A DNA stretch of 28,059 nt. Source: a virus (taxonomy: Duplodnaviria > Caudoviricetes). This document shows positions 6,642 through 16,826 of this stretch, one piece after another. The notes below the pieces were generated by a model that was given only the letters and a program-made list of their open reading frames with translations, ran no database searches and was not told the origin of the DNA. Each line of letters opens with the position of its first letter. Positions within the stretch are counted from its first letter, which is position 1. The stretch lies in IMG/VR virus record IMGVR_UViG_3300023257_000094, positions 1 to 28,059 of that record. One strand, 5' to 3'. A program made the translations under genes and the position numbers.

Positions 6642-7109
6642 ATGGATACAAGAAAGAATACAAAGTTCCCCAAAGAGGCATACGCCGGGGTTATCGATAA
6701 GTATGAAAAACTCAAGGGAATAAAATTGCAGGGATCAGAACATCTCCCAATACAACAAGCAATCAAAACGATGTTTATGAATGAACGTACTATAAAGGAA
6801 ATCGTCGGATGCATGGATATATGTAATGAACGATACTCAGAATGGACAATGAATACTGTTAAAATGAAACTTCCTGAATTTGTTGCTGGAAATCTTGAGA
6901 TGACGAAGTTAAAAACATTCTACTATGAAAACCAAAGGGCAATAATGAAGTTCGGGAAAGTAATGATTCAATGTTCAGATGGAGAACTACGAGGGTTTAA
7001 TGATTTAGTAAGTAAATTAGAGGTACGAGAGGAGTCGATCTCGTGGCCAAAGACAAAAAGCGAAGAGGAAATGGAAACATACTTCGCGTCAAAAATAAAT
7101 ATTAATTAG
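6642..7109 (+). CDS. Hypothetical protein, possibly a replication-initiator C-terminal-like helical domain
   Basis: ORF track; helical, WTMNTVKMKLPEF motif. Confidence 0.6.
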   Translation: MDTRKNTKFPKEAYAGVIDKYEKLKGIKLQGSEHLPIQQAIKTMFMNERTIKEIVGCMDICNERYSEWTMNTVKMKLPEFVAGNLEMTKLKTFYYENQRAIMKFGKVMIQCSDGELRGFNDLVSKLEVREESISWPKTKSEEEMETYFASKININ

Positions 7110-7224
7110 AAATATATGAATGAAATCTATATGTTAACAGTAAAGTATCTTACAGGAGTAATAGTTTTTGCATGTATCATGGGAATTATCATAGCTAAAA
7201 TATATAAAATTAAAGACTAGATAT

Positions 7225-7455
7225 ATGACAAAAGCAAAACACTTAATGCAAGCTGACTACCACAAAGCAGAAATAGTATCTCTTAAATCCGAGAGACACG
7301 ATCTGTTATCAAATCCAACAATGACAGTCCAAGATGCAATTGATGGCAATATGTATATGGATGTATTAACGGCAGACCTCAAGTCTATTGATGCTCTTAT
7401 CAACTCACATACGTTTGATGGGTACGCCCATATTACATTAGCTGAAATTAATTAA
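7225..7455 (+). CDS. Hypothetical protein
   Basis: ORF track, operon packing. Confidence 0.55.
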   Translation: MTKAKHLMQADYHKAEIVSLKSERHDLLSNPTMTVQDAIDGNMYMDVLTADLKSIDALINSHTFDGYAHITLAEIN

Positions 7456-7461
7456 ACTATA

Positions 7462-7692
7462 ATGAAAAAGCTACTCAACTACTTATTATTCCTCATCATA
7501 ATCCTTATTATTTTGTGGGGAGCAACAGCTTTAAGAAACAGAAACACAACAATAGTCCCAGAGGTAACAGACACCGGCATAGTAGAGGCAGAAATAACAC
7601 AATCAGACCATTACAAAGACGCTCTCTTAGCATGTGACGTAGCAGAGGTTAGAAGTTGGGGAGAGCATCTATGGGAAATTAAATGTAAATAA
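7462..7692 (+). CDS. Membrane-anchored hypothetical protein
   Basis: N-terminal hydrophobic helix. Confidence 0.6.
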   Translation: MKKLLNYLLFLIIILIILWGATALRNRNTTIVPEVTDTGIVEAEITQSDHYKDALLACDVAEVRSWGEHLWEIKCK

Positions 7693-7693
7693 T

Positions 7694-7921
7694 ATGTTTA
7701 GAATAGCACCAAATTTAATAGCAAGAAAACATATAAAAAAAGGTGACGTTGTTGTAAGGGTATATAAAAACTATTGTAGACCAGCTGAAGCTGGAGATGG
7801 AAAATTTTTATATGGTGTATGTGAGAGTAATTGTCGCAAAGGGCAAAGGTGCAGAATAATCCCAGCCGGTAATATAATATTTGTGGGGAGCAACAGCTTT
7901 AAGAATTTGAATTTGAACTAA
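7694..7921 (+). CDS. Hypothetical protein
   Basis: ORF track, operon packing. Confidence 0.5.
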   Translation: MFRIAPNLIARKHIKKGDVVVRVYKNYCRPAEAGDGKFLYGVCESNCRKGQRCRIIPAGNIIFVGSNSFKNLNLN

Positions 7922-8030
7922 ACTAATATGAGACAAATAAAGGTTAGAGCTTTCAAGAAAACTTGGAAGAAAAATGAAATCGGAAACGTACACGAGAATA
8001 AAGATTTATTAATTAATTAAACAAAAACAA

Positions 8031-8468
8031 ATGGCAAAACAAACAAAGGAACAATACTACGCAATCATCATGATAATGGCAATAAGTGCTATGGCAACAT
8101 TCGTCTCATACAGTCAATTACAAGATGAACTATCCTATTCCACACAACCTGTAATTAAAACCCATACAGAGCAATCTGAAGTGCCTCAAGCTAATATAAA
8201 TGGGGATACATACGAAGTATCATGTTACACAGGCTATGAATCACATGGAGCTAATGGCAGGGAAGATGAGGTATCAGTAGCTACATATCAATTCCCTCAA
8301 GGTACATGGTTAGAAATCGAAGGCATAGGAAAACGTAGAGTGGACACAGTAACAAGTACAACGTATTCTAATAGAGTAGATATTTGGCTAGGAGATGGAG
8401 GAGAAGAACTATACGATTATTGCTTAAATGAATTTGGACTTAAACATCTAAAGATAAAAGAATTATAA
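8031..8468 (+). CDS. Membrane-anchored 3D-domain (MltA-like) protein
   Basis: N-terminal TM; EVSCYT..ANG..VA..FPQGTWLEIEGIG.R.VD..NRVDIW..FG pattern. Confidence 0.7.
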   Translation: MAKQTKEQYYAIIMIMAISAMATFVSYSQLQDELSYSTQPVIKTHTEQSEVPQANINGDTYEVSCYTGYESHGANGREDEVSVATYQFPQGTWLEIEGIGKRRVDTVTSTTYSNRVDIWLGDGGEELYDYCLNEFGLKHLKIKEL

Positions 8469-8674
8469 TGGAAGATAAAAAAGAGTGGTCATTTATATGT
8501 ACGAATTGCGCATCAAGAAACTTAGTACGATTTGATCCAGATTTATTTCCAGAAGATCTCGAAGTAGAGATATGCTATAAGTGTAGAAAGATATTAGCAA
8601 ACCATCATAGTCGTCAAAAACTTTTAGATGAAAAGTTACGAGGCGAAGTACAATATAATTTAGAAAATGATTAA
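8468..8674 (+). CDS. Zn-finger protein
   Basis: CTNC and CYKC pairs. Confidence 0.55.
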   Translation: MEDKKEWSFICTNCASRNLVRFDPDLFPEDLEVEICYKCRKILANHHSRQKLLDEKLRGEVQYNLEND

Positions 8675-8685
8675 TAAAGATATAT

Positions 8686-9597
8686 ATGAAAATTGACCTA
8701 AAAAAACTTGCTGAAATTGAGCAGTACATGCCAATTATAGTATTGAAGCAGAACATTCAAAATGCGGTACTCGATATGATGGGTAAGGTGCTTTTTGATG
8801 AAGGTAAACACACGTATACCCGGGTATCAGATGGGAAACTATTAGCTGGCGTTACATCTGTAACGAGTCTTGTACCGAAAGAATGGCTTGCAGCGTGGGG
8901 TGCTAAAGAATCTGTAAAGTTTCTAGGGTTCTCAGACTTCCCAGAAGACGTAGAGATTGCAGAGACAATGCTTAAAAAGATTAAAGCATGTAAAACAATC
9001 AAACAGTATGTCGCTATACTCAAGGAAGCAAAGGGTGCAGCGTTCAGAAAATCAAAAGATGCTATGCTCGATGGTAAAATTGGACATGATTGGATTGAGC
9101 GGTATATTAAAACTCAAATGCGTGGAGAGAAGGCTCCGGATATGCCAGAAGGAATGCTTGAACGTCCATTAAAACAATTCCTTGAATGGGAAAAGAAGAA
9201 TATAAAGCTATGGCTACTATCAGAAGCGCGTGTATGTGACCCAGAACGTGAATACGCTGGGACACTAGATGCTATGGCGATAATGAATGACGGATCATCT
9301 GCGATTATTGATTACAAATTTGCATCACACATCTCAGATGAATACTCATTGCAACTTGCCGGGTATGTCGCAACATTCGAAAAGTATGGAATAAAGATTG
9401 ATAAACGAATCATTGTACGCCTACCTAAGACACTTGAAATACCAGAATGGAATCCTAAGACGTATAAGTATAAAATGATTGAGAATAATATTGAAATTAT
9501 GAATTTTGATAAAAATTATGAATTTGATCGCGACACATTCTACTCAGCGCTCCCAGTTCGTAAGTGGGTTAATTTTGCACAAAAAAAATCTAATTAA
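8686..9597 (+). CDS. PD-(D/E)XK exonuclease (phage recombination nuclease)
   Basis: FDEGKHTY, GVTSV, GKIGH, YAGTLD...IIDYK, LQLAGY. Confidence 0.85.
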   Translation: MKIDLKKLAEIEQYMPIIVLKQNIQNAVLDMMGKVLFDEGKHTYTRVSDGKLLAGVTSVTSLVPKEWLAAWGAKESVKFLGFSDFPEDVEIAETMLKKIKACKTIKQYVAILKEAKGAAFRKSKDAMLDGKIGHDWIERYIKTQMRGEKAPDMPEGMLERPLKQFLEWEKKNIKLWLLSEARVCDPEREYAGTLDAMAIMNDGSSAIIDYKFASHISDEYSLQLAGYVATFEKYGIKIDKRIIVRLPKTLEIPEWNPKTYKYKMIENNIEIMNFDKNYEFDRDTFYSALPVRKWVNFAQKKSN

Positions 9598-9614
9598 GTA
9601 ATAAGAAAATAATT

Positions 9615-10058
9615 ATGGACTGCCCAGTATGTAAAGGCTTAATGTGGGATAACACCAATAACAAAAAATCCCCAACGTCACCAGATTACACTTGTAAGAA
9701 TAAAGAATGTAAGTGGTCACAAGATAGAAAAACTAAAGAGTATGTTCAAGGACAATATACAACTGCTGTATGGCTTCCTAAAGAACAAGCACCAGCACCA
9801 GCACCAGCACCAGCACCAGTAGCAGGAGCAAGCGCTGTACCTCAGAAGGTTGATATGAGTGAAGTTGTTACTATATTAAGAGATATTAATTCAGTACTAC
9901 ATACAGTATTCTCTAAAGAATTGATACAAAGATCAACGGAACTCGCTGAACATGAAACAGCTGAACCAATGCCAACTACTGATACTGATCCAGACCCAAC
10001 ACCAGTTGATTCTTCTGATGATGGTAGTGATATAAATGTGGAAGACATCCCATATTAA
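9615..10058 (+). CDS. Zn-finger protein with a PA linker and SSB-like acidic tail
   Basis: CPVC..MWDN..PDYTC..C; (GCACCA)5 at 9789-9818; ends DINVEDIPY. Confidence 0.7.
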   Translation: MDCPVCKGLMWDNTNNKKSPTSPDYTCKNKECKWSQDRKTKEYVQGQYTTAVWLPKEQAPAPAPAPAPVAGASAVPQKVDMSEVVTILRDINSVLHTVFSKELIQRSTELAEHETAEPMPTTDTDPDPTPVDSSDDGSDINVEDIPY

Positions 10059-10375
10059 TGAAGTGTACGTGTAATTATAACGAATCGGTAAAGTTTATAC
10101 CTAGAATAATTCATAATAGAAAATGTAAAATGAGTACCTATCTTGAAAAACACAACGAAGGACTGAGAAAGATAACGCAAGAAGACTATATTGAATATAT
10201 CAAAAGTATTCCGTGGGAAGTTATACATAGTCTAGCAATTATACGCATGGAAGAAGGAGACAAAAGGCACGGGGATTGGAGAAATAGATTCAAAACAAAA
10301 GCAGAATTGAGAAAAGAATTTATCGAAGAACAGTCAGACGGACTCAATTATATGGAAATGGAAATTGATTTATAA
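10058..10375 (+). CDS. Hypothetical protein
   Basis: ORF track; translationally coupled. Confidence 0.55.
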   Translation: MKCTCNYNESVKFIPRIIHNRKCKMSTYLEKHNEGLRKITQEDYIEYIKSIPWEVIHSLAIIRMEEGDKRHGDWRNRFKTKAELRKEFIEEQSDGLNYMEMEIDL

Positions 10376-10377
10376 AT

Positions 10378-10713
10378 ATGGCCTCAAGAAGAATGTTATC
10401 AAAATCTATAAGCTATTCTACAAAAGTAAATGAATTATCATCAGACTTTGCACGCTTACTGTACACATGGATAATCCCACATCTTGATGATTGGGGTAGG
10501 ACGGATGGTAATTCTCAAGGGATTAAACTTCAAGTAATGCCGGGATCAGATAAAACGGTAGAAGAATTTGAAAAAGCATTACAAGAAATGAATGATGTTG
10601 GACTCATAGATAGATATGAGGTAGAAGGAAAGATGTATATCCAATACACAAACTTCGATGAATATCAATGGGGACTAAAAAAAAGCGGAAAGAGTAAAAT
10701 CCCATCCGCATAA
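10378..10713 (+). CDS. Phage replisome organiser/replication initiator, N-terminal domain only
   Basis: MASRRMLSKSI...ARLLYTWIIPHLDDWGR...GLIDRYEVEGKMYIQYTNFDEYQ...SKIP. Confidence 0.75.
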   Translation: MASRRMLSKSISYSTKVNELSSDFARLLYTWIIPHLDDWGRTDGNSQGIKLQVMPGSDKTVEEFEKALQEMNDVGLIDRYEVEGKMYIQYTNFDEYQWGLKKSGKSKIPSA

Positions 10714-10723
10714 CAAGAATTAT

Positions 10724-11200
10724 ATGGTACAAGGTAATATATTTAACAGCAATACACTAGATGTAAAAATGTTAAAAACAGGTGATGAAAACTGTCCACA
10801 TTGTAATAGATTAATGCGTGCATACTGTAAGACAATGGATAGACGTTTGGCGGAGGAGCTAATAGAACTATATAAATCTGTTGGTGGTAACAGAAGAACG
10901 CCATTTAATCCTAAAGAAGTATTTGTAGGGAATCATAATAAAATTACAGACTTCCAAAAACTAGGATACTGGTGGCTTATAGAACGTACAGACAAAGGTG
11001 GTTGGTGGAAAGTTACATATGATGGTGAGCAGTTTCTAAGAGGGAATCTATCAATAGAAAAACAGATCTGGATATTCAATGGTGAGAAAATTCCAAACGA
11101 TAATCCAAACCCAGAGATGGTGCACATTGGCAACTTATGTCCCCGCTGGCAAACAGATCGCTTAGATTATTCAGAAGACTTTGTGTTAGCAAAGCTATGA
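10724..11200 (+). CDS. Conserved-looking phage hypothetical protein (CPHC plus winged-helix-like region)
   Basis: KLGYWWLIE...GWWKVT.DGEQFL. Confidence 0.65.
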   Translation: MVQGNIFNSNTLDVKMLKTGDENCPHCNRLMRAYCKTMDRRLAEELIELYKSVGGNRRTPFNPKEVFVGNHNKITDFQKLGYWWLIERTDKGGWWKVTYDGEQFLRGNLSIEKQIWIFNGEKIPNDNPNPEMVHIGNLCPRWQTDRLDYSEDFVLAKL

Positions 11201-11349
11201 TGACAACCTGCCCTGCATGTGGCGAAAGAAAACAAGTCAATAAAATAAACTCTCCACTTGATCGCTATCATAGAATGAAGAAGAAAGGATACTGGAGTTG
11301 CTACAAACAATATCTTAAAGCTAAAAAATTATTTGAACCCTATGACTAA
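11197..11349 (+). CDS. Small Cys-containing hypothetical protein
   Basis: ATGA-coupled start MMTTCPACG. Confidence 0.5.
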   Translation: MMTTCPACGERKQVNKINSPLDRYHRMKKKGYWSCYKQYLKAKKLFEPYD

Positions 11350-11554
11350 ACAAGAAGAACAAAAGTGTGAAGCATGCGATAAAGCATTTAAGTTCAACAA
11401 ACTATCACATACCCTATGTAATGATTGCTGTAATGAAGATGAACTAAAGGCATTTGCAAACCTACCAGATGAAATAAAAATAATAGAAGTAGAGGAATTT
11501 GTTAGTGGTCAAACTATTGATCCATACCAACAATACCTAGAACAAAGACTATGA
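11342..11554 (+). CDS. Small Zn-finger protein (MTKQEE start)
   Basis: CEAC and CNDC pairs. Confidence 0.55.
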   Translation: MTKQEEQKCEACDKAFKFNKLSHTLCNDCCNEDELKAFANLPDEIKIIEVEEFVSGQTIDPYQQYLEQRL

Positions 11555-11796
11555 CTAAACAAGAAGAACAAAAGAAATGTAAAGAATGTAATACAACTAT
11601 ACCCGACTTAGTCGCAAGCTATGAAGACAACTATTGTAGCAAGGAGTGTTATGAAGCCCAGAATAACGGACACAAATGTACAAGTAATTGTCGCAGAGAG
11701 GGTTGTCCACTATGTATTCACGGAGTACATGAGGAGATATATTGTGAAGTGTGTGACGATGAACAAAACCCTGATTGGGAGAAGGAGAAATCATGA
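11551..11796 (+). CDS. Cys-rich protein (MTKQEE start)
   Basis: Multiple CxxC motifs. Confidence 0.55.
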   Translation: MTKQEEQKKCKECNTTIPDLVASYEDNYCSKECYEAQNNGHKCTSNCRREGCPLCIHGVHEEIYCEVCDDEQNPDWEKEKS

Positions 11797-12377
11797 GAAG
11801 TGCTGAAGTTAGGGAAAGGATAAGCATTGGGATTAAAAAGCATCACGAAACCTTAACCACAGAACAAAGAAATAGTATATATGGTGGTGCTAATAAGGGG
11901 AAGAAAAAGGAAAAAAGCTGGTTAGACAGACAATACAAGGAACGGCAGGATTACGATAGAAATTACTACAAGAAGAATAAGGATAAAAGAGAATCCCAAA
12001 TAAAAGATTATTATAAGAACAATAGACAGAAAATATACAATAGAATGAAAAAGAATAAAGAAGATTACCCAGAAAAAGACAAAGCTAGACTTATGGTGCA
12101 AAAGGCAGTAAAGTCTGGTGAGTTGAAACGAGAACCATGCTTATTTTGTGGCAATGAGAAAGTGCATGGGCATCATCAGGACTATAGTAAACCCCTTTTC
12201 GTTATATGGTTATGCCCTAAATGTCATAAAACATATCATGCACTATCTGAACAACAACTAGATAAGCAGAAGGAAGAATTTATTAACTACGAAAGATGTT
12301 TAGGATGTGGCAAATTAGGCGAAGAAGATGAATACTCATTATCGAGGATATGTTTAGATTGTACGGAGAAACTTTAA
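11793..12377 (+). CDS. HNH-type endonuclease
   Basis: AVKSGELKREPCLFCG..VHGHHQDYSKPL.VIWLCPKCH; ATG at 11793 is coupled to the upstream stop. Confidence 0.75.
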   Translation: MRSAEVRERISIGIKKHHETLTTEQRNSIYGGANKGKKKEKSWLDRQYKERQDYDRNYYKKNKDKRESQIKDYYKNNRQKIYNRMKKNKEDYPEKDKARLMVQKAVKSGELKREPCLFCGNEKVHGHHQDYSKPLFVIWLCPKCHKTYHALSEQQLDKQKEEFINYERCLGCGKLGEEDEYSLSRICLDCTEKL

Positions 12378-12583
12378 CTGACTCTCTTAAATAAACTACT
12401 ATGAAGAAAACATTTAGCGGGTTTGCAAAAGATATACCCGAACAAATAAAAGACTGGATTGAAGGCGAAAGCTCTGGATACAAAATAGAGTTAAAAAAGA
12501 ACTATGACTAAACAAGAAGAAGCAGTTGAAATTCCTGATGCTCCACCATTTACGCATAACATTAAGAATTTATTAAATAATAT

Positions 12584-13588
12584 ATGAAATACTTATCAAC
12601 ATTTACAGGCATAGGTGGATTTGAATTAGGAATACAAAAAGCATATGAGTTGATTAACTTGCAAAGTAATAATAATTGTGATAATATAGATATATGCAAA
12701 AACAATGCCCAAAATGTAAAAAAACAAAAGATATATCAGAGTTCTATAATTCAGGAACAAACACAAGGAGATGTAAAGAATGTTCCAGAAAAGAAGCTAA
12801 TGATAGATATAAAAGAAACCCAGAAAAATATAAAGGGGCAGTTTCAAGGTGGAAAAAAAGAAACCCAGAAAAATATAAACAGATTACAAGAGAACAAAAC
12901 GAAAAAAGGAGAAAAAGAATCCTTGATATGTACGGAAGAAAATGTGCCTGTTGTGGAGAGTCAGAAGAAAAATTTCTCACACTTGAACATAAACGACAAG
13001 ATGGATATAAAGACAGAAAAAAATACGGAACAGGATATATGTATCAACTCGCACTCAAAGAAAATAATAAATCAAAATACGAAATTCTGTGCTACAACTG
13101 CAACAATGCAAGAGGAAGATATGGGGAATGTCCCCATTTGCGTAGGATTTAGTGAGATAAATAAATATGCAACTAAAATATATGAAAAACATTTCCCAAC
13201 ACATACCAATTTTGGAGACATCACAACAATCAATGCTAAAGAACTCCCAGACTTTGATTTACTTGTCGGTGGAGTGCCCTGTCAAAGTTGGAGTATTGCA
13301 GGAAAAAGAGGCGGATTTGAAGATGAGCGTGGAAATATGTGGTTTCAATATTCTCGCATACTTAGAGCAAAACAGCCCAAATTCTTCGTCGCTGAAAATG
13401 TTAAGGGACTTCTCTCCCACGATGGAGGTAAAAGCATGGAACGAATATGTGAAGAACTTTGCGGATGCGGTTACGCAATAGATTTTGAAGTACTTAATGC
13501 AAAGAACTTTGGTGTTCCGCAGAACCGTATGAGGGTTTTTATTATAGGAGTGCGTTTAGATTTACTTGACGAGTGTCAAGTGTTTTGA
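12584..13588 (+). CDS. dcm: C5 cytosine DNA methyltransferase, N-terminal part (motifs I-VIII), with a ~160-aa insert after motif I
   Basis: FTGIGG (I), SEIN (II), GDIT (III), GGVPCQSWS (IV), ENVKG (VI), QNRMRVFIIG (VIII). Confidence 0.9.
   Translation: MKYLSTFTGIGGFELGIQKAYELINLQSNNNCDNIDICKNNAQNVKKQKIYQSSIIQEQTQGDVKNVPEKKLMIDIKETQKNIKGQFQGGKKETQKNINRLQENKTKKGEKESLICTEENVPVVESQKKNFSHLNINDKMDIKTEKNTEQDICINSHSKKIINQNTKFCATTATMQEEDMGNVPICVGFSEINKYATKIYEKHFPTHTNFGDITTINAKELPDFDLLVGGVPCQSWSIAGKRGGFEDERGNMWFQYSRILRAKQPKFFVAENVKGLLSHDGGKSMERICEELCGCGYAIDFEVLNAKNFGVPQNRMRVFIIGVRLDLLDECQVF
12659..12687 (+). promoter_or_regulatory. Internal promoter for nested HNH1, probably leaderless
   Basis: TTGCAA-17 nt-TAATAT with TGn; ATG 6 nt downstream at 12694. 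Confidence 0.6.
12694..13152 (+). CDS. HNH endonuclease nested in an alternative frame inside the MTase gene
   Basis: CPKC..CKEC Zn finger; CACCG..FLTLEH..ILCYNCN..CPH. Confidence 0.85.
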   Translation: MQKQCPKCKKTKDISEFYNSGTNTRRCKECSRKEANDRYKRNPEKYKGAVSRWKKRNPEKYKQITREQNEKRRKRILDMYGRKCACCGESEEKFLTLEHKRQDGYKDRKKYGTGYMYQLALKENNKSKYEILCYNCNNARGRYGECPHLRRI

Positions 13589-13594
13589 TACACT
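13566..13594 (+). promoter_or_regulatory. Promoter for HNH2, probably leaderless
   Basis: TTGACG-17 nt-TACACT with TGn; ATG 6 nt downstream at 13601; -35 lies in the inverted repeat CTTGAC-gagt-GTCAAG. Confidence 0.65.
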
Positions 13595-13600
13595 TAATAC

Positions 13601-14008
13601 ATGAAAAATGAACAATATAAAGAAATGCACGAGGTATATAAAAAGGGTTTTTCCTTGGCAGAAGTTGGTAGAATGTTTGGCGTGGCTAGACAAACTGTCC
13701 ACAATGGACTTTCTCGGCGTGGTTATAAACCAAGAAAGAAAAAGCCACTACCTTTTTTAGTATTTAACGGAAATAAGTACACCTTAAAAAACCATGGATA
13801 CTATGGGAGAACCGATGGGGATAGAACTCTGATGCACCGAGATGTTTGGGAACACCACAATGGTAAAATACCACCAAGCCACGACATACATCACATAGAC
13901 CATGACAAAACAAACAACGATATTATTAACCTAGAACTTTACAAAAAATCAGAACACGCTAGAAAGTTCGCAACAGGAAACAATCAGTATGGCAAATTCA
14001 ATAGATAA
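13601..14008 (+). CDS. HTH-HNH homing endonuclease splitting the MTase gene
   Basis: GFSLAEVGRMFGVARQTV HTH; MHRDVW..HDIHHIDHDKTNN..NLEL..EH. Confidence 0.9.
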   Translation: MKNEQYKEMHEVYKKGFSLAEVGRMFGVARQTVHNGLSRRGYKPRKKKPLPFLVFNGNKYTLKNHGYYGRTDGDRTLMHRDVWEHHNGKIPPSHDIHHIDHDKTNNDIINLELYKKSEHARKFATGNNQYGKFNR

Positions 14009-14273
14009 ACTTAAACTAAAACTATTATGCAATCCAAAAATAAAAATGATGGCGTTCAACTTTCCACAAGGTACGAACAATACGAGTTCGCTAAGCGACA
14101 TCTTGGAGGAGAACCCAGACGAAAAGTATTTCCTATCGGACAAGCAGACACAAAGTCTAATAGCAACACACTCAGGACAAACTATTCAAATGGACACTCT
14201 AACGAAACCTATATTAGACAGCTTAACAAACCAAAGCACTCCAACGACAGAATCTACGGAACAGATGGAGTAA
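13989..14273 (+). CDS. Overlapping MTase-related peptide (FNFP...LSDILEENPDEKYFLS); start may be at the internal MMAFNFP
   Basis: Segment typical of the post-motif-VIII region of C5 MTases. Confidence 0.5.
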   Translation: MANSIDKLKLKLLCNPKIKMMAFNFPQGTNNTSSLSDILEENPDEKYFLSDKQTQSLIATHSGQTIQMDTLTKPILDSLTNQSTPTTESTEQME

Positions 14274-14494
14274 GTCCAACACTTAACACAGCACAAGGAG
14301 GAAACAGACAACCATTTATTCCAGAAGAATCAAGAATCCGCAGACTAACACCTCTCGAATGTGAACGCTTGATGGCTTACCCTGATGGTTGGACAGAGGG
14401 ACTAAGTGATACGCAGCGATACAAGACTCTAGGAAATGGCATTGTATCAAATGTCGTAGAAGCAGTTATAAGTCGACTAGAACAATCTAATTAA
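14027..14494 (+). CDS. C5 DNA methyltransferase, C-terminal part (TRD, motifs IX-X)
   Basis: HLGGEPRRKVFPI, GVSPTLNT, RRLTPLECERLMAYPDGWT, QRYKTLGNG. Confidence 0.85.
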   Translation: MQSKNKNDGVQLSTRYEQYEFAKRHLGGEPRRKVFPIGQADTKSNSNTLRTNYSNGHSNETYIRQLNKPKHSNDRIYGTDGVSPTLNTAQGGNRQPFIPEESRIRRLTPLECERLMAYPDGWTEGLSDTQRYKTLGNGIVSNVVEAVISRLEQSN

Positions 14495-14509
14495 ATAACA
14501 TAAATAAGC

Positions 14510-15082
14510 ATGAGAACAATCAAAGTATCAGATGAGACATTTGAACTCATCAAAGACCAATTGAAAGAAGACAAACCAAAAAAGAAAACAGAGATTCTAA
14601 ATAAGAGTGGTGGTGTACTTTATAGTTCTGATAAGGAGACTATAAAAGAAGCAGTTGTTGAGGCGGTGGACAGTGAAGCTGACCTGCGTGAAGCTAACCT
14701 GAGTGGAGCTGATTTGAGTGAAGCTTACCTACGTGGAGCTAACCTGCATGGAGCTAATCTGCGTGGAGCTAATTTGAATGGAGCTAATTTGTATGGAGTT
14801 AATCTGCGTGGAGCTAATTTGAATGGAGCTAATTTGTGTGGAGCTAATTTGAATGGAGCTAATTTGTATGGAGCTAACCTGCATGGAGCTGATTTGAGTG
14901 GAGCTAACCTGAGTGGAGCTGACCTGTGTGAAGCTAACCTGCATGGAGCTGACCTGATTGGAGCTAACCTGAGTGGAGCTGACTTAATGAACGCAAAGTT
15001 CTACGGTAAAGGTGGAGATACTAAAATCAGAAAGAAAGATTTAGACAACTTCTTAAAAGCACTTGGTATTGTAGTAGATTAA
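14510..15082 (+). CDS. Pentapeptide-repeat protein
   Basis: About 20 tandem A(N/D)LxG units (15-bp repeats at ~14675-14990). Confidence 0.9.
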
Positions 15083-15092
15083 CCTAAGAGAT

Positions 15093-15242
15093 ATGAAAGA
15101 AAAAACTAATACATGTAAAGTTTGCCATAAACAGTTCTCTTATAAACAAAGGGGATTCACTATTAGGAATACTTGCTCAAATGAATGTAGGCTTGAGGTA
15201 TCAAGACGATTAGGTAACACTTATTTTAATAAGAACGTATGA
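15093..15242 (+). CDS. Small Zn-finger ORF
   Basis: Manual translation: CKVC..TCSNEC. Confidence 0.45.
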   Translation: MKEKTNTCKVCHKQFSYKQRGFTIRNTCSNECRLEVSRRLGNTYFNKNV

Positions 15243-15261
15243 AACCACGAACAGCTATTCA

Positions 15262-15441
15262 ATGAAGTCAAAAATATGTAATGCGTGTGAAAAGGAATTA
15301 GAACTTGATCATTTTTGTAATGATAGAAGTAAGAAAAAGGACGGTAAGTCTACAATATGTAAGGAATGTCGTAGCGAAAGAGTTAAATTATTTAGAAAAA
15401 ATAACTTAAAATTAGTTAGGGAATATGATAGAAGGAGATGA
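15262..15441 (+). CDS. Zn finger like an HNH N-terminus, lacking the nuclease domain
   Basis: Manual translation: MKSKICNACEKELELDHF..KDGKSTICKECR. Confidence 0.5.
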   Translation: MKSKICNACEKELELDHFCNDRSKKKDGKSTICKECRSERVKLFRKNNLKLVREYDRRR

Positions 15442-15453
15442 GGAGAATAAAAC

Positions 15454-15482
15454 TTGACGTATTATTGGGAATGGTTTATTAT
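15454..15482 (+). promoter_or_regulatory. Sigma70-like promoter
   Basis: TTGACG-17 nt-TATTAT. Confidence 0.65.
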
Positions 15483-15515
15483 GTACATACAAGTACGAGA
15501 CCATTTTCATATAAG

Positions 15516-15546
15516 AAACGCGGGTTCTCGTACACCTGCGTTTTTT
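15516..15546 (+). terminator. Intrinsic terminator/attenuator
   Basis: AAACGCGGGT-TCTCGTAC-ACCTGCG followed by T6. Confidence 0.7.
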
Positions 15547-15840
15547 GTTACCCTAGAGAACATAAGTCTGACTGGCAGGGTTAAAAGCCGGTCTCGCTAT
15601 GCCCGATTCGCGTCCGACGCGACGGAATAGTTACATAAACTAAGTGCAGTAACCAATCTGTCTTCGGTGGATACAGCCGAAGTAAAATGCCTACTTAGTG
15701 CCTGTTAATACCTACACAGTAAGATGTATAAACATATAGTAGAGATTAAAACTACACTAATATATGCCTCACTCTATAAGAGAACAAAGCCCTCATCACG
15801 CCCTCGCTCTGGAATAGTCCCAATTAACACAGCTATGATT
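15547..15840 (+). ncRNA. Candidate structured ncRNA or long 5' leader
   Basis: No ORF in the track, GC-richer than its flanks, several hairpins and loop-pairing segments. Confidence 0.4.
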
Positions 15841-15867
15841 TTATAAATAAAATAATAGAACAATCAA

Positions 15868-16290
15868 ATGATAAATGCTAAGAAAAAAGGTAATGCTGGC
15901 GAAAATAGATTTGCTAAATGGCTAGCGTTAAAAGGGATTGATAATGCAAAACGCAATTCTGGGTCTGGTTCTGGACTTGCGAAGTCAGATGTGCATAATT
16001 CACTAGGGCTTAACCTTGAAGTAAAGACTGTTAAAGCTCTAAATCTAAAAAAAGCAATGGAGCAATCAGAGCGAGACGCAATGATGACGCACACTAAGCC
16101 TTATGTAGTTGTTCATTTTGATGGGATGCCTGAAGATACATGGATTATCTGTATGTCATCAGATGACTGGATTGAGTTATATAAACGCGCACAAGAGCCT
16201 AAGACCCCAGACAACGGAGGAAAAGAGCTTACATGGGCGTTAAAGACCCTCGTACAAGCCTGTAAGAAGGTAATTAAACTATTAGAATAA
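15868..16290 (+). CDS. Holliday-junction resolvase (Hjc-like PD-(D/E)XK)
   Basis: NAKKKGNAGE..RNSGSG..SDV..LEVK. Confidence 0.8.
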   Translation: MINAKKKGNAGENRFAKWLALKGIDNAKRNSGSGSGLAKSDVHNSLGLNLEVKTVKALNLKKAMEQSERDAMMTHTKPYVVVHFDGMPEDTWIICMSSDDWIELYKRAQEPKTPDNGGKELTWALKTLVQACKKVIKLLE

Positions 16291-16439
16291 ATATATGAAA
16301 ACATTTGAAGAATATTGGGCAGAAACAACAGCAGAACTTGGCATGGTTGGACAAGTGTCTGACGTAGAGGCTAAGAAGCATATTGCAAAACTAGAGTATG
16401 TGTTAAGGAACTTTATTAATGACTCATTAAAAAAGTAAT

Positions 16440-16826
16440 ATGAGCAAACTACTAACGACACCAGCAACAATCTCAAAAGTTCAAACAATGTCGCATCGTT
16501 CTTTACGTTTACAGGTAGACACAAACGAAGCATTATCTGATGAAGAGGTTGCAAAAATCATGTCTAACTATGAAAAGTTTGGATACTTTTGTTTTATAGA
16601 AGAAAAACATGGGGACATTAAACCAGAAGATCTTGTTGATCTACCTAAGCTACCTGCTACAGATGAATCAAGTAAAAAAACACCTAGTCAAAGACTAAGA
16701 AATGTACTTTATATTGAATGGAAGACACTAAAAACAAAAGAATATCAAGATAGGTACCCATTTGAAATATATTATAATGGTGAAATGAGTAGAGTTATCG
16801 AAGGAAGAAAAGATAAATTATTATGA
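16440..16826 (+). CDS. Phage hypothetical protein
   Basis: KTPSQRLRNVLY..W...FEIYY motif; last gene of the plus arm. Confidence 0.7.
   Translation: MSKLLTTPATISKVQTMSHRSLRLQVDTNEALSDEEVAKIMSNYEKFGYFCFIEEKHGDIKPEDLVDLPKLPATDESSKKTPSQRLRNVLYIEWKTLKTKEYQDRYPFEIYYNGEMSRVIEGRKDKLL

Follow-up and report, generated by a model that had tools for sequence, protein, structure and literature searches.

The locus described here raises the question of how a complete HNH endonuclease gene can persist inside a conserved DNA methyltransferase (MTase) gene, read in another frame, without being spliced out. The window, that is the whole stretch of 28,059 nucleotides analysed, is a 28-kb phage contig whose genes include a terminase large subunit, an exonuclease and a RusA-like resolvase, and the sequencing runs listed as containing its sequence are from salt-lake metagenomes, with no RNA run among them. 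In the original prediction, made from the sequence alone, the nuclease was read as a homing endonuclease nested without splicing, with the host protein carrying a passenger loop translated from the off-frame of the nuclease gene. This reading is supported, sequence patterns and a structural model pointing to the absence of splicing and to translation of the loop. We consider it likely that the nuclease gene, HNH1, persists without splicing because the MTase is probably translated straight through the insert as a disordered loop, and that the element moves by homing. A promoter-like box, a two-frame host gene and a change in motif III of the carriers, all described below, were absent from that prediction.

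Results

HNH1 lies in an open methyltransferase frame

As originally described, a complete HNH gene is nested within the MTase ORF (Table 1), and no stop is present in the MTase frame across it, while 16 are counted in the remaining frame. The prediction had also listed six HNH1 Leu and Ile codons at risk of creating a stop in the MTase frame, all ending in C or T, and four stop-making codon pairs in the neighbouring, non-nested HNH2; the same six codons were recovered, each ending in C or T, and HNH2 contains all four pairs (TTA GTA, TTA AAA, ATA GAC and CTA GAA) plus ATG AAA and CTG ATG, with 6 stops in its own +1 frame. Simulation by synonymous recoding, proposed as a check, gives a chance of an open frame of P ∼0.002. 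If the codon usage of the other 27 genes of the window is applied, the expected number of stops in the MTase frame over HNH1 is 4.2 and the probability of none is 0.0021, a value of 0.0014 being obtained with the codon usage of the plus-strand genes and ∼0.003 if the last 10 codons are omitted. The corresponding frame is open in 0 of the 27 other window genes.

Table 1. Coordinates of the features of the nested locus, given as window positions.
Feature	Position	Strand	Basis or remark
C5 cytosine MTase alpha-N ORF, 334 aa, motifs I-VIII	12584..13588	+	Pfam DNA_methylase E 3.5e-59
alpha-N motifs FTGIGG, CVGFSEIN, PCQ, ENV, QNRMR	12602, 13139, 13277, 13394, 13520	+	
Passenger loop, MTase frame, between motifs I and II	12649..13138	+	spacer length, pLDDT
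Extended -10 promoter-like box TG-n-TAATAT, 6 nt upstream of HNH1 ATG	12679..12687	+	putative function
HNH1, nested endonuclease VII-like (beta-beta-alpha-metal) nuclease gene, 152 aa, frame 3	12694..13152	+	
Two identical 24-nt copies, 45 nt apart, inside HNH1	12811..12879	+	15-codon duplication preserving both frames
Remnant of +1-frame beta-like ORF over catalytic region, 104 aa	13167..13481	+	premature end
Motif III codons N-F-G-D, F at 13211-13213	13208..13219	+	predicted resistant version of HNH1 target
HNH2 promoter-like site TTGACG-17-TG-TACACT, 6 nt upstream of ATG	13566..13594	+	also codes final alpha-N residues
HNH2, HTH + HNH_3	13601..14008	+	HNH_3 E 2e-15
beta-like C-terminal ORF, 94 aa, SLSDILEE...KYFLS at 14088	13989..14273	+	+1 frame vs alpha-C; PHROG DNA methyltransferase 5.9e-7
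MTase alpha-C ORF, 155 aa: variable region, RRLTP 14339, GN motif X 14432	14027..14494	+	

The final 7–9 codons of HNH1 and its TAG stop coincide with conserved motif II, so that the insert lacks a 3′ end separate from host sequence, and in the nested relatives inspected the nuclease stop is always found where the host sequence resumes. HNH1, at 33% GC in an AT-rich window, matches PHROG HNH (1.5e-16) and endonuclease VII families, with Pfam Endonuclease_7 just below cut-off, and contains C84xxC87, E98-H99, R108, C133xxC136-N137 and C146-P-H148. C84, C87, H99, R108, C133, C136 and N137 are invariant in 16 nested copies, in which E or D occupies position 98; the DHHRN/DHDH motif is without its second His, R101 being found there in HNH1 and the position varying among relatives. 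Structure searches with HNH1 returned only PacI as a weak match (E 0.15 against solved structures, E 0.07 in the fold search). A near twin, L001, compared with the window over 1950 bases of the locus, shows 6 differences, 0 of them in HNH1; all 6 are packed into 19 bases (13375–13393) upstream of motif VI, resembling a small recombination patch. The MTase is neighboured by a third endonuclease-like gene (PHROG 2340, 11775–12377), a pentapeptide-repeat gene (14510–15082) and a short ORF with a zinc finger (15214–15441) that looks like the N-terminus of an HNH protein.

Nearly all nested relatives keep the host frame open

The original prediction called for a search for other nested cases, and in total the host frame is open in 33 of 34 distinct relatives within methylase genes and in 3 of 167 free-standing copies. 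A first set, scanned with the nuclease as query and with the host frame disregarded, comprised 79 distinct genes, weak loci L013–L016 having been dropped as they gave no match on re-search. The frame is open in 22/22 of its distinct copies inside methylase genes, including the twin, and in 1/57 other copies; the single open case, L082, may be due to chance (P 0.02). The ORF at L082:627–1550 begins with the helix-turn-helix of IS605 OrfB and has a TnpB-like tail, in the manner of an IS605-type remnant. The second set, obtained with a query alignment built from nested copies, comprised 144 loci, 127 of them new, with open frames in 10/10 flanked copies compared with 2/110 free copies (P 6e-13). 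Among seven second-set copies with a methylase on one side only, five adjoin a methylase gene and one, L254, is nested and open up to the contig end. In L289 (1770–3689), situated inside an N6/N4 methylase gene, 8 stops are present and the host gene is split between profile positions 61 and 60, and thus read-through is not the sole solution of this nuclease family.

The nested copies occupy four sites in two methylase classes. In the first set, seven including the twin lie at site A, between C5 motifs I and II (two are cut at the contig 5′ end), two at site B, between motifs II and III, eight at site C, between motifs III and IV, and five at site D, in an N6/N4 methylase. A quick tree of the HNH proteins, which has many long branches and in which we rely solely on the three nested groups that are starred or have 92% support, places the nested copies in three groups; two free-standing members within these have 8 and 3 stops. 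L020 and L021 have the N-terminal half of the HNH protein in common and differ in both its C-terminal half and the host. A protein search with HNH1 returned 9 relatives, the window's own protein not among them, and DNA scans returned 141 in metagenome contigs. Cultured-phage relatives of HNH1 amount to 50 records with <60% identity. The survey suggests that nested genes of this kind are common and have been overlooked. L181, a copy nested in a C5 MTase, is located on a contig labelled as a Saccharibacteria genome bin, and the carrier protein P0059 has Trp at many conserved Gly positions, a pattern suggesting that its genome reads TGA as Gly and that the wrong code was used in translating it.

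Selection acts on the nuclease frame and probably on the composition of the loop

The nuclease frame is under purifying selection, pN/pS of HNH1 being 0.32–0.41 against 8 nested relatives. Among nested copies pN/pS is 0.11–0.57 in the HNH frame and 0.69–3.2 in the host frame, and the latter range does not indicate that the amino acids of the loop are conserved. With pS at 0.34–0.93, synonymous sites approach saturation, indicating that stop avoidance does not merely reflect shared ancestry. Avoidance is specific to the context in which a stop would arise: in nested copies A-ending Leu, Ile and Val codons occur at 0/165 positions before a purine compared with 37/158 before a pyrimidine (P 3e-13), and at 217/706 positions before a purine in free copies.

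Nested copies also use fewer T-ending synonymous codons at residues where T cannot create a stop. T at the avoided codon position would specify a hydrophobic residue in the host frame, and hydrophobic residues make up a fraction of 0.215 of the off-frame reading in 12 nested copies versus 0.328 in 38 free copies, the comparison being limited to copies with enough flanking genes. The effect is present in every nested group when GC is allowed for. Because the pattern was noticed in the data and the relatives are not independent, the P values attached to it are too small, both for the second set, in which 10/10 copies fall below the free-copy trend (P 1.5e-5), and for the window alone, where the effect is weak (1/22 versus 100/405 at 4-fold sites, P 0.036; 25/40 versus 339/500 at 2-fold sites, P 0.49; pooled P 0.36). 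Free-standing L009 retains the avoidance. These codon patterns are a sign of probable selection on a translated, hydrophilic loop.

The spacer between motifs I and II is 172 aa in the window and has a median of 45 aa (range 13–108) in 84 insert-free relatives, fourteen proteins having been skipped by the motif parser in this survey; the left edge of the loop is near 12648, where the match to habitat relatives stops. An AlphaFold prediction based on 79 sequences assigns a pLDDT of 78–98 to core residues 1–30 and 181–334 and <50 to loop residues 56–73 and 84–175, and the part after the loop superimposes on M.HhaI at 1.6 Å over 145 columns. In this model, the MTase core is predicted to be intact on both sides of a low-confidence loop.

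Intron, intein and restart signals

The claim that the locus lacks an intron or intein signal was confirmed by Rfam, Pfam and junction-pairing analysis. Over 11500–15500 no Rfam family reaches its cut-off, the four matches all having E 0.9 or worse, and no intein family is matched in Pfam. A terminal His-Asn before a downstream Cys, as found in inteins, is not conserved in the host frame of the relatives. The junctions differ across the four sites, and their pairing is at chance level (−15.2 kcal/mol versus −15.9 ± 6.2 at random). Non-HNH sequence in the insert amounts to ∼45 nt on the 5′ side and none on the 3′ side. Contigs of eight DNA runs contain no spanning piece and only insert-free relatives from the same habitat. 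Restart of translation at Met181 (13124, after a GAGGA run) was rejected, as this Met is absent in P0021 and P0059 and restart does not need an open frame.

The host gene in two frames and three pieces

The alpha-N ORF of the window contains motifs I–VIII only, the rest of the enzyme lying beyond HNH2, which is inserted after motif VIII and splits the MTase gene into alpha-N, a beta-like piece and alpha-C; the last matches DNA_methylase positions 216–322 (E 1.4e-13). The catalytic motifs are intact, motif VIII being QNRMR, not QNRER. The same split is observed in many relatives that end in LDLLD-CQ-F. In L025 (3800–3930) HNH2 is internally deleted, with the promoter start and 3′ end left, and the MTase still consists of three ORFs. 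An unrelated second HNH gene is nested in frame 2 downstream of motif VIII in L021, L026 and L123; the alpha-N frame continues across it to fuse with the beta-like SLSDILEE motif, alpha-C starting in the third frame. L021 and L026 thereby have two nested nucleases within one MTase ORF.

In insert-free relatives with a loop of at least 35 aa, the +1 frame is open across the loop in 22/22 cases and the +2 frame in 0/22. The beta-like motif is present in 18 of these 22, its ORF extending into the loop in 17 of the 18. The beta-like ORF of the window is in two pieces, while that of relatives continues uninterrupted into the SLSDILEE motif. Judged from these reading frames, the host family itself appears to be two-framed, with an EcoHK31I-like layout. 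In L002, L010, L124, L139 and L152, which have short motif I–II loops, the +1 frame is more conserved than the MTase frame, and in some relatives, such as L152, the +1-frame loop looks like what we presume to be target-recognition repeats joined to the beta-like ORF.

Mobility and predicted target of HNH1

Carriers at site A occur in three host clades amid insert-free alleles, and grouping them as a single clade is rejected (AU P 7e-74; 10 versus 16 rows, on 26 chosen rows). P0061, a carrier by loop length but without passenger sequence, was omitted from this test and counted as a non-carrier for motif III. The motif III Tyr (N-Y-G-D) is present in 0/13 carrier proteins and 94/107 non-carriers, the best of 159 columns, with P 1.2e-10, a value that is too small because the pattern was noticed in the data and the rows are related. 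The carriers have Phe, Leu or Trp at this position, in all three host clades, and 13 of the 107 non-carriers likewise lack the Tyr. At the DNA level the Tyr codon is found in 22/22 insert-free loci parsed and in 0/9 carrier loci, and habitat relatives have A, the Tyr-type base, at 13212. Site B elements, which are sisters of those at site A, insert directly before motif III. The changed motif III of the carriers, taken with the known co-conversion of sequence away from an endonuclease gene, leads us to predict that the cut site lies at motif III.

A promoter-like box upstream of HNH1

The extended -10 box is found at both insertion sites A and B, its bases varying, with the same box and 6-nt spacing in 7/8 elements with upstream DNA in view; it is missing in L005. 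In site C and D copies it is absent from 11 of the 12 checked (1/12 has it). The same arrangement plus a -35 box precedes HNH2. A generic promoter scan did not report the HNH1 box, and returned 6 promoter-like sites compared with 7.4 by chance. The spacing of the box points to a possibly leaderless HNH1 transcript. In the plus-strand genes from 6642 to 16826, the leaders of most listed start codons are A/T-rich and without a clear Shine-Dalgarno run. A palindrome at 13563–13582 overlies the HNH2 -35 box, and the HNH2 product has an N-terminal helix-turn-helix; self-repression of HNH2 via this palindrome is possible.

Discussion

The proposed explanation consists of steps of unequal strength. 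Very probably the host enzyme requires motif I to stay joined to motifs II–VIII, so that selection would remove stops from the intervening frame. We hold with nearly as much confidence that the loop is retained in the protein and that selection favours a hydrophilic composition. The nuclease would probably be expressed from a leaderless transcript of its own, initiated at the extended -10 box, and there is good reason to expect that the element spreads by homing in mixed infections, the nuclease likely copying itself into intact genes. We also lean towards HNH1 cutting insert-free alleles at the motif III N-Y-G-D codons, ∼60 nt past its stop, with carriers resisting through a co-converted change of the Tyr codon. 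The motif I–II site is likely permissive because the MTase family already appears to use this loop as a +1-frame beta-subunit passenger.

Translation through the insert could also occur without homing, the nuclease benefiting the phage, for instance in competition with co-infecting phages, and being moved between MTase alleles by ordinary recombination. Purifying selection and the scatter of carriers over the host tree fit recombination as well, as do the common N-terminal half and the differing C-terminal half and host of L020 and L021. Recombination does not, however, predict the loss of one conserved codon, 60 nt downstream, in 13/13 carriers of three clades, nor sister elements inserting directly at motif III, and we regard this explanation as unlikely. 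The loop might alternatively be clipped after translation by proteases or an unknown excision at the protein level. Clipping would need the open frame too, the loop is predicted to be disordered, and fragments of C5 MTases can reassemble, as described in the accessible text of PMC3404938; the lack of an intein match or a conserved His-Asn before a downstream Cys, the lack of host-frame amino-acid conservation and the differing junctions at four sites nevertheless make it quite improbable.

Removal or skipping of the insert in RNA, by an unrecognised intron or ribosome bypass, has a precedent in group I introns, in which homing genes of the endonuclease VII-like type are found (PMC6083498, accessible text). 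Here nothing reaches the Rfam cut-off, the ∼45 nt 5′ and 0 nt 3′ of non-HNH sequence and the random-level junction pairing speak against it, and removal would neither need an open frame nor select loop residues, so that we consider it very improbable. Hardly any weight is given to the open frame being chance or a relic in a dead, three-piece MTase. The gene is indeed also split by HNH2, its beta-like ORF stops short at 13481 and motif VIII has QNRMR in place of QNRER, but the frame is open against P 0.002 in the window and in 33/34 relatives, the catalytic motifs are intact, and the split is common in relatives, outlasts HNH2 deletion in L025 and has the natural M.AquI split nearby (PMC3404938, accessible text).

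Translation of the MTase through HNH1 combined with homing thus remains the preferred explanation. In a wider form, which we hold about evenly balanced between right and wrong, an endonuclease VII-like family would have adopted dual coding at least three times, with a stop-free hydrophilic off-frame, its own leaderless promoter inside the host frame, insertion at four sites in two unrelated methylase classes, exploitation of the host's second-frame passenger loop and protection of the element's allele through co-conversion of a single codon, located at a cut site readable from alignments. Selection on how hydrophobic a frame is, as proposed here for one without amino-acid conservation, bears on the origin of overlapping genes.

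Comparison with known systems

Free-standing endonucleases that home without introns cut away from their insertion site, with co-conversion of the flanks (intronless homing, PMC2988022, accessible text), as proposed for HNH1. The mobE insertion in nrdA gives genes in pieces (PMC3045599, accessible text); HNH2 and L289 similarly split host genes without splicing, whereas HNH1 leaves the host ORF continuous. The HNH1 core resembles F-CphI and the DHHRN enzymes (PMC6083498) in its C-terminal endonuclease VII-type core with CxxC, an acidic residue and His, Arg, and CxxC-Asn, but its subgroup has Glu for Asp and the second His is absent; DHHRN enzymes, as described in the accessible text, are free-standing or in an intron, whereas HNH1 is nested.

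M.EcoHK31I is a two-frame alpha/beta C5 MTase (PMC2836561, PMC3404938), to which the relatives of the window are likened by layout, a second long +1-frame ORF lying within the MTase gene. Unlike in the accessible description of M.EcoHK31I, the beta-like frame of the window is cut at its start by HNH1 and in its middle by HNH2. M.AquI is naturally split (PMC3404938), and the split in the window MTase lies near this natural one, as far as the accessible text locates it.

Closest in design are the ShiLan domain and the Pacc40 gp60 insertion, HNH genes hidden out of frame in the methylases of actinobacteriophages (Arsenault, Gosselin, Gogarten 2025, PMC11855218). According to the accessible text, ShiLan has in common with HNH1 a frame-3 HNH gene in a phage methylase, a stop-free host frame, no intron or intein signal, a predicted loop away from the enzyme and a patchy spread, the last also described in the accessible part of PMC9957025. 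The ShiLan nuclease is of the HNH_3 type, with no similarity (E 1.9) to endonuclease VII-like HNH1, and its host, gp65, is an N6/N4 methylase whereas that of the window is C5; the site D relatives of HNH1 are found in the host family used by ShiLan, roughly 12 residues further downstream than ShiLan itself. Inteins containing frame-3 genes of the endonuclease VII-like type have also been described (bioRxiv 2025.01.02.630785, accessible text). These genes are of the same nuclease class and relative frame as HNH1, but the passengers are spliced out by the intein, while no intein is detectable around HNH1.

Leaderless translation was proposed for ShiLan as speculation, and the accessible text of PMC11855218 leaves open the translation of the passenger, the expression of the hidden nuclease and what the nuclease cuts, neither testing the open frame for selection nor giving a promoter or a target site. 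A literature search, with subscription papers mostly outside its scope, found no report of this design in C5 MTases or metagenomic phages beyond the Gogarten-lab papers; the nuclease family, C5 host sites, selection tests, promoter and predicted target are new here in so far as none was found in the literature searched. The HNH1 lineage provides sequence evidence bearing on passenger translation, nuclease expression and target. The nesting design itself was already published in 2025, and HNH1 is a separate, widespread lineage of it.
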